A stretch of DNA of 64,000 nt from the NCBI GenBank assembly GCA_023416735.1, contig JAEZGX010000009.1, positions 40,788 to 104,787 on the forward strand, written 5' to 3'. Position 1 is the stretch's first letter, and each line of letters begins with the position of its first letter. A program made the translations under genes and the position numbers. Below the pieces are notes generated by a model. That model did not search any database and was not told where the DNA came from. It saw nothing but the letters and a program-made list of their open reading frames with translations. The DNA is from Verrucomicrobiota bacterium. GTDB taxonomy: Bacteria > Verrucomicrobiota > Verrucomicrobiia > Opitutales > Opitutaceae. This document shows, piece after piece, positions 61,453-62,934 of this stretch.

Positions 61453-61539
61453 CAAGTGCAGCCATTCTTCGAGATTAGTGTAGCCGTCGCCATCGTCGTC
61501 GTCGGAGCCGTAGTCAGGGACATCGAGCGGCCGATGATT

Positions 61540-62934
61540 TTACACGTTGGCCGGAGCCCACGGATCGGCACCGAGATCGGAGAAACGTTCGAGAAACGTG
61601 CCGCCGGCCGGATACGGGTTGGCGCGATCGAGCATCTCGCCGATCAACGCCGCGTCGATCGGATCGCGTTGCGCAGGAAATTTTCCCGCGCCGAGCAGCA
61701 AGTTTTCCTCCACGATTTCCGACGGCCAGGGCGTCCACGTCGTGCCGCCGGAGTTCGCGTAAGGATCAGCGCCGAGTCGCGTCACGGGCGTGCCGGAACG
61801 ATCCCGCACGATCTCCTCGTCCGACAGCCAGGTGTTGTTCTGCGGATCCAGCAGCCGGTTGTCCGCGAGGTAAAACGCCGCGTTCGCGGACACGTTGTCG
61901 CTGATATAAATGCCCGTGCTGTAAAACGTGGGATGCTCGGTCGCGGTGGTGATCAGCGTCTGCGCGTCAACCACCGACGTATCCGGCAGCCGCGTGATAT
62001 CCATGACGAACGGCGTCGGGTGCCGAATGATGGCGTTGCCGATGACCGAGACTTGGTGCGGCGGCGCGGTGATGTTGTCGAAGCGGATGACGCCATTCGG
62101 CCACGGCGCGGGGCGATAGATGAGGTTGTTGATGATCTGCGCGCCCGCCGTCGCATTGGCCACGGCGGGATTCCGGCCGTAGTTGAACGCCATGATGTTT
62201 CGAATCATCGAGATGTTCGAGGTGTTCGGCCCCGCGAGCGGACCGAAACCGTGCGTGCCCTCCGAGTGGCTGCGCAGGCGCGAGTGCCCGCTGGCGTCGG
62301 GCTCGCCATTCATGATCGGTTTCGCGAAAATGCTGTTGAGGAAAGTGACATTCGTGATCGCTCCGTTCGCGCCCCACATCGACGCCATTTCGTCCACCGA
62401 CCAACTGCAGGAAACGTGATCGAGCACGATGTTGCGGACCGTCACGCCCGCGGGCGTCTCGATCTTGATGGCGTCACGGTTGTCGAGCTGGCCCTGGGTG
62501 CCGACGAGGTTTCCGGGCCGAATCGCGATGTGCTGGATGAGAATGTCGTGCGAGCGGATGCTGATGCCGAAATTCTTCAGCGTGATGCCGGGATACGGCG
62601 CGGTCTGGCCCGCGATCGTCAGGTGCGAATACGCGCCGAAGGAATCGTCGCGAATCACCAAATCCGATTCCAATTCGATCACGCCGGAAACTTCGAAGAC
62701 GATCACGCGCGGCTGTCGCATGCTCGCATCCTCGATACCGAAGCGCAGCGAGCCCGCACCGCTGTTGTTGAGATTTGTAACACGATAGACGATACCGCCG
62801 CGACCGGCGGGCGTATCGGTGCCGAATCCGACCGCGCCAGGCACGACCGGAAGAGCAAACGTGGGGAGGCAACTGAGCACGGCAATCGCTGCCGCGCTCA
62901 GGAATCGGAACAGGGAATAACGCGAGTTTCTCAT
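61540..62934 (-). CDS. N-terminal fragment of paralog B: signal peptide plus pectate-lyase-like beta-helix domain
   Basis: 464 aa, nearly collinear and highly similar to residues 1-470 of paralog A (for example VPGAVGFGTDTPAGRGGIVYRVTNLNNSGAGSLRFGI). It ends at a TAA directly after ..DPWAPANV. Confidence 0.75.
   Translation of the reverse strand: MRNSRYSLFRFLSAAAIAVLSCLPTFALPVVPGAVGFGTDTPAGRGGIVYRVTNLNNSGAGSLRFGIEDASMRQPRVIVFEVSGVIELESDLVIRDDSFGAYSHLTIAGQTAPYPGITLKNFGISIRSHDILIQHIAIRPGNLVGTQGQLDNRDAIKIETPAGVTVRNIVLDHVSCSWSVDEMASMWGANGAITNVTFLNSIFAKPIMNGEPDASGHSRLRSHSEGTHGFGPLAGPNTSNISMIRNIMAFNYGRNPAVANATAGAQIINNLIYRPAPWPNGVIRFDNITAPPHQVSVIGNAIIRHPTPFVMDITRLPDTSVVDAQTLITTATEHPTFYSTGIYISDNVSANAAFYLADNRLLDPQNNTWLSDEEIVRDRSGTPVTRLGADPYANSGGTTWTPWPSEIVEENLLLGAGKFPAQRDPIDAALIGEMLDRANPYPAGGTFLERFSDLGADPWAPANV

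Follow-up and report, generated by a model that had tools for sequence, protein, structure and literature searches.

A premature stop codon in a multidomain PL1 subfamily-2 lyase gene of an Opitutaceae population: a probable young pseudogene

The DNA analysed here, a stretch of 64,000 nucleotides (nt) from an Opitutaceae bacterium to which we refer as the window, carries near its high end a gene for a large pectate-lyase-like protein whose reading frame is interrupted by one in-frame TAA codon. The gene is flanked by two relatives with the same catalytic module of polysaccharide lyase family PL1, subfamily 2 (PL1_2), which we call paralogue A and paralogue C. We consider it likely that the split gene is a recently broken copy of what used to be one long gene, and we set out below what the locus contains, how the stop is distributed among related sequences, which part of the protein it removes, and how other explanations of the same facts compare.

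The split frame and its stop codon

All coordinates are positions in the window, and the split gene lies on its minus strand. The elements on which the argument turns, including the two open reading frames (ORFs) on either side of the stop, are the following.

61540..61542, minus strand: premature TAA stop, codon 465; the orthologous codon is CAG or CAA (Gln), and an identical TAA is found in contigs L001/L002, L015 and L016
61543..62934, minus strand: upstream ORF of 464 codons, a PL1 subfamily-2 beta-helix with Arg254, without the last ~36 residues of the module (NCBIfam PelZ, PDB 9buj)
about 62854-62934, minus strand: signal-peptide-like N-terminus of the upstream ORF, by inspection
61435..61539, minus strand: codons 466-500, the conserved end of the catalytic module (N-x-R-x-L ... 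DDDGDGYTNLEEWLH), comprising the pseudo-EF-hand loop and helix
58810..61455, minus strand: downstream ORF of 881 codons from a TTG at 61455; the ATG at 61452 gives the 880 amino acids (aa) called in public assemblies
56014..58668, plus strand: paralogue A, intact, 884 aa, a PL1_2 module and two LamG-like domains, convergent with the split gene
63009..64000, minus strand: paralogue C, a PL1_2 module only, with the EF-hand tail kept, running off the end of the window

In the ORF list the two pieces, 61540..62934 (464 aa, from an ATG) and 58810..61455 (881 aa, from a TTG), share a frame. Translation of 62934..58810 yields 1375 codons that end in a terminal TAG and contain codon 465 as the sole internal stop, that is, a frame of 1374 codons. 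Around the TAA the minus strand reads ...CCG GCC AAC GTG TAA AAT CAT CGG CCG..., and the 28 codons between this stop and the TTG at 61455 translate to NHRPLDVPDYGSDDDDGDGYTNLEEWLH; the codon aligned to the TAA is CAG in paralogue A and CGG in paralogue C. A preliminary description of the locus had reported two same-frame ORFs with one stop between them, this linker, these aligned codons and the two paralogues, and on all these points it is borne out. The segment 61435..61539 sits past the TAA and ahead of any start codon, and is absent from every ORF product. We do not regard the arrangement as a chance juxtaposition of ORFs, because seven uninterrupted orthologues can be aligned with the joined frame over its entire length (100% coverage), at 75-93% identity. 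As for the paralogues, the N-terminal module of paralogue A is 69% identical to that of the split gene, and paralogue C lies 72 nt upstream of the split gene on the same strand and is called as a protein of 482-493 aa in assemblies of this population and of its intact sister.

A further open frame, of 1373 codons at 58969-63090 (+), lies antisense to the split gene and spans the stop site. Long antisense open frames are typical of genes with a high GC content at third codon positions and are not evidence of a gene; in other words, ORF length alone is misleading in a sequence of 62% GC. A scan of the window for long ORF pairs split by a single stop was likewise swamped by many long open non-coding frames at this GC content.

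Recurrence of the stop and the ancestral state of the gene

The window comes from a metagenome scaffold of 405 kb (ENA ERZ28596370, SAMN17215428), and in an independent Logan assembly of run SRR13358353 the 4125-nt gene is identical, TAA included. Further 464-aa and 880-aa fragments of slightly different sequence were found by a 90%-identity cluster look-up. In particular, contig L015 (ERZ28599219, SAMN17215430, i.e. a different BioSample) carries the same TAA, matches the window at 99.18% over 5.5 kb and differs from it by 36 nt within the gene, and contig L016, from a third assembly (ERZ27268859), has the same TAA in the same place and is 99.65% identical to the window over 2.6 kb. Altogether, four assemblies, drawn from at least three datasets, contain the TAA, and they represent three distinct haplotypes with mutual identities of 99.2-99.7%.

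Were the stop an artefact of sequencing or assembly, the true codon would be CAG or CAA and the gene would be intact, and in this respect it should be noted that the source is a metagenome assembly and that all more distant relatives carry a sense codon at this position. That said, the TAA appears in the output of two assemblers for one run, and again in two contigs of other datasets whose sequences are different at other positions. What is more, TAA and CAG differ at two bases, and no homopolymer or repeat context was found at the stop site. Because three haplotypes from at least three datasets carry the same TAA, we regard an error as very unlikely and, as far as these sequences can tell, the stop as genuine. 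When the exact junction, allowing any codon in the place of the stop, was looked for in JGI metagenome contigs and in GTDB representative genomes, the known intact JGI contig was the sole match. The preliminary description had kept a sequencing error among its options and had proposed that a sense codon in sister genomes would indicate one; recurrence in separate assemblies and samples, at two bases from CAG, speaks against the former, and the latter rule proves too strong, in that the sisters do carry CAG and yet the stop is real.

One intact orthologue, an uninterrupted protein of 1374 aa from the same 90% cluster (P0125), is encoded on contigs L013 and L014 (ENA ERZ795039, JGI 3300005286). 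These two contigs, which represent the sister lineage, are fully syntenic with the window: both share with it, in this order, a LacI regulator, paralogue C, the orthologue of the split gene, a convergent paralogue A, an SSF transporter and a 2-hydroxyacid dehydrogenase. At the nucleotide level they match the window at 92.0% over 13.6 kb; within the gene, which shows no indels and has CAG in the place of the stop, the identity is 93.3%. Six more distant orthologues (P0001-P0006), from metagenome-assembled genomes (MAGs) of Opitutaceae or Verrucomicrobia, are 1371-1420 aa long and 75-81% identical at the amino acid level, at 100% coverage, and all have Gln at this codon, written CAG in five of the six and CAA in the sixth. 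Still more distant homologues, P0008 and P0009, at about 50% identity, are likewise single ORFs.

To judge from these comparisons, the ancestral gene was one ORF, and the stop arose once the population had parted from the 92% sister lineage but before its three sampled haplotypes separated from each other. The change from CAG to TAA takes two substitutions, probably via a silent CAA or via TAG. The alternative that the orthologues might consistently be two separate genes, which the preliminary description had also entertained, is refuted by their single frames with Gln at the critical codon, and the comparison with sister-lineage orthologues that it had suggested as a check finds an uninterrupted gene.

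The catalytic module, its lost tail and the domains beyond

Pfam-A gives no match on the 464-aa piece and, in general, leaves the PL1_2 module unrecognised in all three paralogues. The NCBIfam model pec_ly_PelZ matches residues 8-282 (E 2.2e-48), albeit with 165 bits against an equivalog cut-off of 840, which makes the protein a homologue and not an orthologue of PelZ, and PDB entry 9buj ('Pectate lyase', PfPL1) is matched with an E value of 2.3e-15 at an identity of only about 18%. For the structure we used an AlphaFold2 (AF2) model of orthologue P0001 (residues 1-520), whose identity to the N-terminal part encoded in the window is 90%. This model, with a predicted local distance difference test score (pLDDT) of 85 and a predicted template-modelling score of 0.87, has a right-handed parallel beta-helix as its core, and the top PDB match in a Foldseek search is again 9buj (E 4.6e-16), followed by VexL, Jun a 1 and many pectate and pectin lyases. 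Sequence profile, structural match and model agree in placing the N-terminal module in PL1 subfamily 2, a more precise statement of the earlier and correct wording 'pectate-lyase-like'. Residue R254, in a G-R-N-P motif and at least 90% conserved, aligns with R220 of 9buj; it lies upstream of the stop and is retained. In PfPL1, Arg220 is the catalytic arginine responsible for proton abstraction and Arg235 is a second arginine (PMC11229556). The equivalent of Arg235 lies within an unaligned stretch of the 9buj match.

Where does the stop fall with respect to this module? According to the preliminary description, it lies exactly at a conserved domain junction, and one possible outcome would be a catalytic-domain-only enzyme like paralogue C. 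Our analysis contradicts both points. Namely, the stop is situated ~36 codons ahead of the end of the catalytic module, such that Arg468 and the whole pseudo-EF-hand (DDDGDGYTNLEEWLH) are lost, and the 464-aa product ends 13 residues short of the start of this motif. Among the 120 homologues listed, the match to the query reaches residue 496 or beyond in 119, and none ends near residue 464; more than 20 homologues, from several phyla, terminate 5-15 residues past a common ending, ...NxRxLxxPxNPNGDDDGDGYTNLEEWLHQMAAxVEG. In 63 diverse members of the family, conservation reaches at least 90% at the tail residues P473, D479, D481, G484, Y485, E489, E490 and L492, and the tail matches calmodulin EF-hand 4. 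In the model of P0001, residues 461-500 have pLDDT values of 92-96, and disorder begins at residue 501. In agreement with this, the PL1_2 crystal structure, that of PfPL1, terminates in a Ca2+-binding pseudo-EF-hand that its authors view as structural (PMC11229556). Taken together, the ends of homologues, the conservation, the model and the crystal structure place the true C-terminal boundary of the PL1_2 module just past the pseudo-EF-hand. All intact orthologues have this element, as do paralogues A and C, and the 464-aa product is without it; because paralogue C, like the wider family, keeps the tail, the product is not its equivalent.

Downstream of the stop, the following domains can be recognised, all on the minus strand.

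61168..61425, minus strand: PKD or K319L-like PKD domain (Pfam PF22352, PF18911)
60946..61146, minus strand: MBG_3 domain (Pfam PF18887, E 4e-22)
60160..60393, minus strand: beta-helical region resembling DUF7305 or bactofilin (Pfam PF23981, PF04519)
59935..60141, minus strand: Big_7 bacterial Ig-like domain (Pfam PF17957, E 2e-14)
59359..59856, minus strand: first LamG/DUF1080-like domain, an internal repeat of the last domain (BLASTP against the latter, E 1e-25), also in paralogue A
58828..59313, minus strand: second LamG-like domain, of the 3-keto-disaccharide hydrolase / DUF1080 family (Pfam PF06439, E 2e-9)

For the beta-helical region, the whole-protein score of Bactofilin is 28.3 bits against a cut-off of 27.9, with no single stretch passing, and DUF7305, at 23.4 bits, stays below its cut-off of 27. 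The two tandem LamG/DUF1080-like domains are common to the downstream piece and paralogue A. The TTG at 61455 corresponds to L494 of the intact protein and the ATG at 61452, 87 nt past the stop, to M495; the latter is invariant in the aligned orthologues, and residue 494 is usually Gln. Within ~20 nt upstream of either codon no Shine-Dalgarno-like sequence was seen, and a scan covering promoters of the sigma-70 type found none in 58500-63200. By inspection, the N-terminus of the downstream piece, MAVAVETADNVPP..., shows no signal-peptide features, just as had been stated before.

In a wider stretch, comprising 52733-64000 of the window and 1-21395 of contig L001, the three PL1_2 paralogues are accompanied by a LacI-family regulator, a GFO/IDH/MocA oxidoreductase, an SSF sodium:solute symporter and a 2-hydroxyacid dehydrogenase, and the cluster gives the impression of an Opitutaceae locus for the utilisation of polysaccharides or uronates. 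The convergent stop codons of paralogue A and the split gene are separated by a gap of 141 nt, which contains two GC-rich hairpins, at 58694-58719 (+) and 58770-58796 (-); the former, with a T-run after it, resembles a terminator for paralogue A. The sister contigs L013 and L014 are without a 310-aa gene between the beta-lactamase/DUF4185 and GFO/IDH/MocA genes (L013 4936-5410 versus L001 4375-5409, a gap ~560 nt shorter in the sister), which is kept in the window's own scaffold, just past the window's high end, and in contigs L003, L010 and L016. In this sense, each of the two lineages has lost something different in the neighbourhood. Finally, in the Opitutaceae MAG PE_dung23, 82% identical (L003, 10169-12931), a protein of 920 aa with a faint CBM_35 match is encoded on the same strand downstream of the intact orthologue, where the window has the convergent paralogue A, meaning that the third member of the lyase cluster varies between lineages.

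Age of the allele, alternative explanations and known systems

The part of the gene beyond the stop, 909 codons, contains no further stop or frameshift, either in the window or in L015. In the window's downstream part, 23 of 906 positions have unique replacements at otherwise invariant sites, compared with 16-24 in the six intact orthologues, and the pairwise ratio of non-synonymous to synonymous substitution rates is 0.15-0.22 with the window, compared with 0.14-0.24 for pairs of intact genes. At the scale of the orthologues, no decay is detectable in these sequences. With 30 substitutions, the neutral chance of zero new stops is about 0.5, so the open downstream frame says only that the event is young. 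The suggestion of the preliminary description, from the absence of any other stop over 4.1 kb, that the event is recent agrees with this reading.

The course of events that we favour is as follows. In one near-clonal Opitutaceae population, after its split from the ~92% sister, the Gln codon CAG would have turned into TAA by two substitutions. Translation from the ATG at 62934 would then stop at codon 465, the secreted product would be a 464-aa PL1 subfamily-2 core without the last ~36 residues of its module, the Ca2+-binding pseudo-EF-hand included, and the remaining ~870 residues, with their surface or carbohydrate-binding-type domains, would be unlinked from the signal peptide. The gene would thereby be a young pseudogene and at best encode a crippled truncated enzyme, a loss that may be tolerated with the intact adjacent paralogues A and C present in the same sugar-utilisation cluster. 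In our judgement it is likely that we are dealing with such a genuine young nonsense allele, an incipient pseudogene tolerated as two paralogous PL1_2 genes flank it; that both pieces have lost their function, and that redundancy is the reason for the tolerance, is what we infer from the arrangement. So understood, the gene is an ordinary young pseudogene and involves no new mechanism. The recent nonsense mutation was also the leading option of the preliminary description, and the single-gene orthologues with Gln, along with the absence of further downstream decay, support it.

Two observations weigh against this view. On the one hand, the putative catalytic Arg254 is kept, and the 464-aa core might still work. 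On the other, the downstream parts of the window and L015 differ by 17 synonymous and 13 non-synonymous codons, which is significantly fewer replacements than expected under neutrality (binomial P 0.0004-0.003) and could mean that the downstream piece is still under selection. We do not take this low ratio as selection on the fragment, however, because the differences are patchy, and imports by recombination would carry the substitution pattern of their functional donors. Namely, 35 of the 36 differences between the window and L015 in the gene fall into four short patches (29 of 30 for the downstream piece), with one elsewhere, and the densest patch holds 17 differences in 254 nt, a local divergence of about 7%. 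Such patchiness fits recombination imports, or a strain-mosaic consensus, from lineages with the intact gene. What is more, the ratio of 13 to 17 is not different from the corresponding ratio against the intact sister (Fisher P 0.42). We also note eight variants within 62476-63993 of the window, in paralogue C and at the beginning of the split gene, at which L015 and L016 agree with one another and depart from the window; the clustering of differences throughout suggests recombination or strain mixing within the population.

A possible but unlikely alternative is that the truncation is functional, i.e. that the secreted 464-aa PL1 core is still an active, free enzyme, and that losing the ~900-aa accessory or anchoring region was neutral or advantageous, which is how the allele spread. 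Both Arg254 and the whole beta-helix lie upstream of the stop, the allele is present in all three sampled haplotypes, a 1.4-kb stretch around the stop shows a single window-L015 difference between flanks that hold clusters of differences, and module-only paralogues exist naturally, paralogue C among them. However, the natural module-only members keep the pseudo-EF-hand tail, which ranks with the family's best-conserved segments, is modelled as integral to the fold and is described as a structural Ca2+ site (PMC11229556), and not one of the listed family members ends near residue 464. We find it distinctly improbable that the downstream piece is still made and used, whether because ribosomes reinitiate at the ATG at 61452 or because they read through the TAA at a low level, which would make the locus two genes or one leaky gene. 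The frame is open over 909 codons in two haplotypes and the haplotypes with the stop differ by fewer replacements, relative to silent changes, than expected under neutrality, but the clustered differences point to recombination, and at a no-new-stop chance of about one half the open frame is uninformative. Moreover, the ATG 87 nt past the stop is merely the conserved M495 codon, with neither an evident Shine-Dalgarno sequence nor a promoter-like site, and the product would have domains of extracytoplasmic type and no signal peptide to bring them there. As to readthrough, TAA terminates 13 of the 36 crude gene calls in the window, in five of them as TAA-A, paralogue A included; as had been argued in the preliminary description, TAA-A is a normal terminator here, which counts against programmed readthrough.

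Phase variation or programmed recoding, by reassignment of the stop or a suppressor tRNA, has in our estimation a practically negligible probability. No tandem repeat was found in 61200-61800 and there is no simple repeat at the site, the change consists of substitutions, and the phase-variable option raised earlier falls with this. No recoding signal was found, and the window contains no suppressor or UAA-reading tRNA, its one Rfam-supported tRNA being tRNA-Lys(ttt). The sole hint, a tRNA-Pyl (cta) called by ARAGORN at 8666-8739 (-), lies inside a coding-like ORF (7103..8902, minus strand), at a GxGxxG motif of the Rossmann type that binds flavin or nicotinamide adenine dinucleotide, falls below the Rfam tRNA threshold and would read UAG and not UAA; it is almost certainly a false positive. 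We hold it to be quite unlikely, finally, that the allele was selected and did not simply decay, either because a knock-out or shortening of a large, Ig-domain-rich surface lyase swept through the population or because the downstream 880 aa are under purifying selection as a separate product. A sweep, if true, could reflect escape from a phage or predator using the protein as a receptor, or the release of a free enzyme, and would account for both the stop in all three sampled haplotypes and the 1.4-kb block of low diversity.

If the gene is, as we believe, a young pseudogene, the 464-aa and 880-aa calls in public assemblies would be fragments of one 1374-codon multidomain PL1_2 lyase and should be flagged as a pseudogene, not as two genes for a carbohydrate-active enzyme and an adhesin. 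The locus would also provide a clean, dated example of gene loss in uncultivated Opitutaceae, with the gene intact in the 92% sister and broken in haplotypes at least 99.2% identical, inside a cluster of three paralogous lyases. Regardless of the fate of the gene, a module boundary past the pseudo-EF-hand should be useful for the domain annotation of the large PL1_2 family, which is without Pfam coverage.

How does the split gene compare with known systems? Relative to PfPL1 (9buj), the N-terminal module is homologous, with a beta-helix core followed by a helical or loop C-terminal region that ends in a pseudo-EF-hand, and with R254 aligned to R220; in contrast to PfPL1, the intact orthologues carry ~870 extra residues (PKD, MBG, Big_7 and LamG-like domains), and the window's ORF stops ahead of the pseudo-EF-hand. 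The 464-aa product superficially resembles module-only PL1_2 paralogues such as paralogue C, with a signal peptide, a PL1_2 module and no accessory domains, but the natural module-only proteins end 10-20 residues past DDDGDGYTNLEEWLH, whereas the truncated product ends before it. Finally, the gene is like young single-nonsense pseudogenes of bacteria in its one premature stop, its otherwise intact frame, its intact close relatives, its redundant paralogues and its freedom from secondary lesions, and unlike them in that the allele appears to be fixed in three sampled haplotypes of an uncultivated population and differs from the ancestral CAG by two bases.

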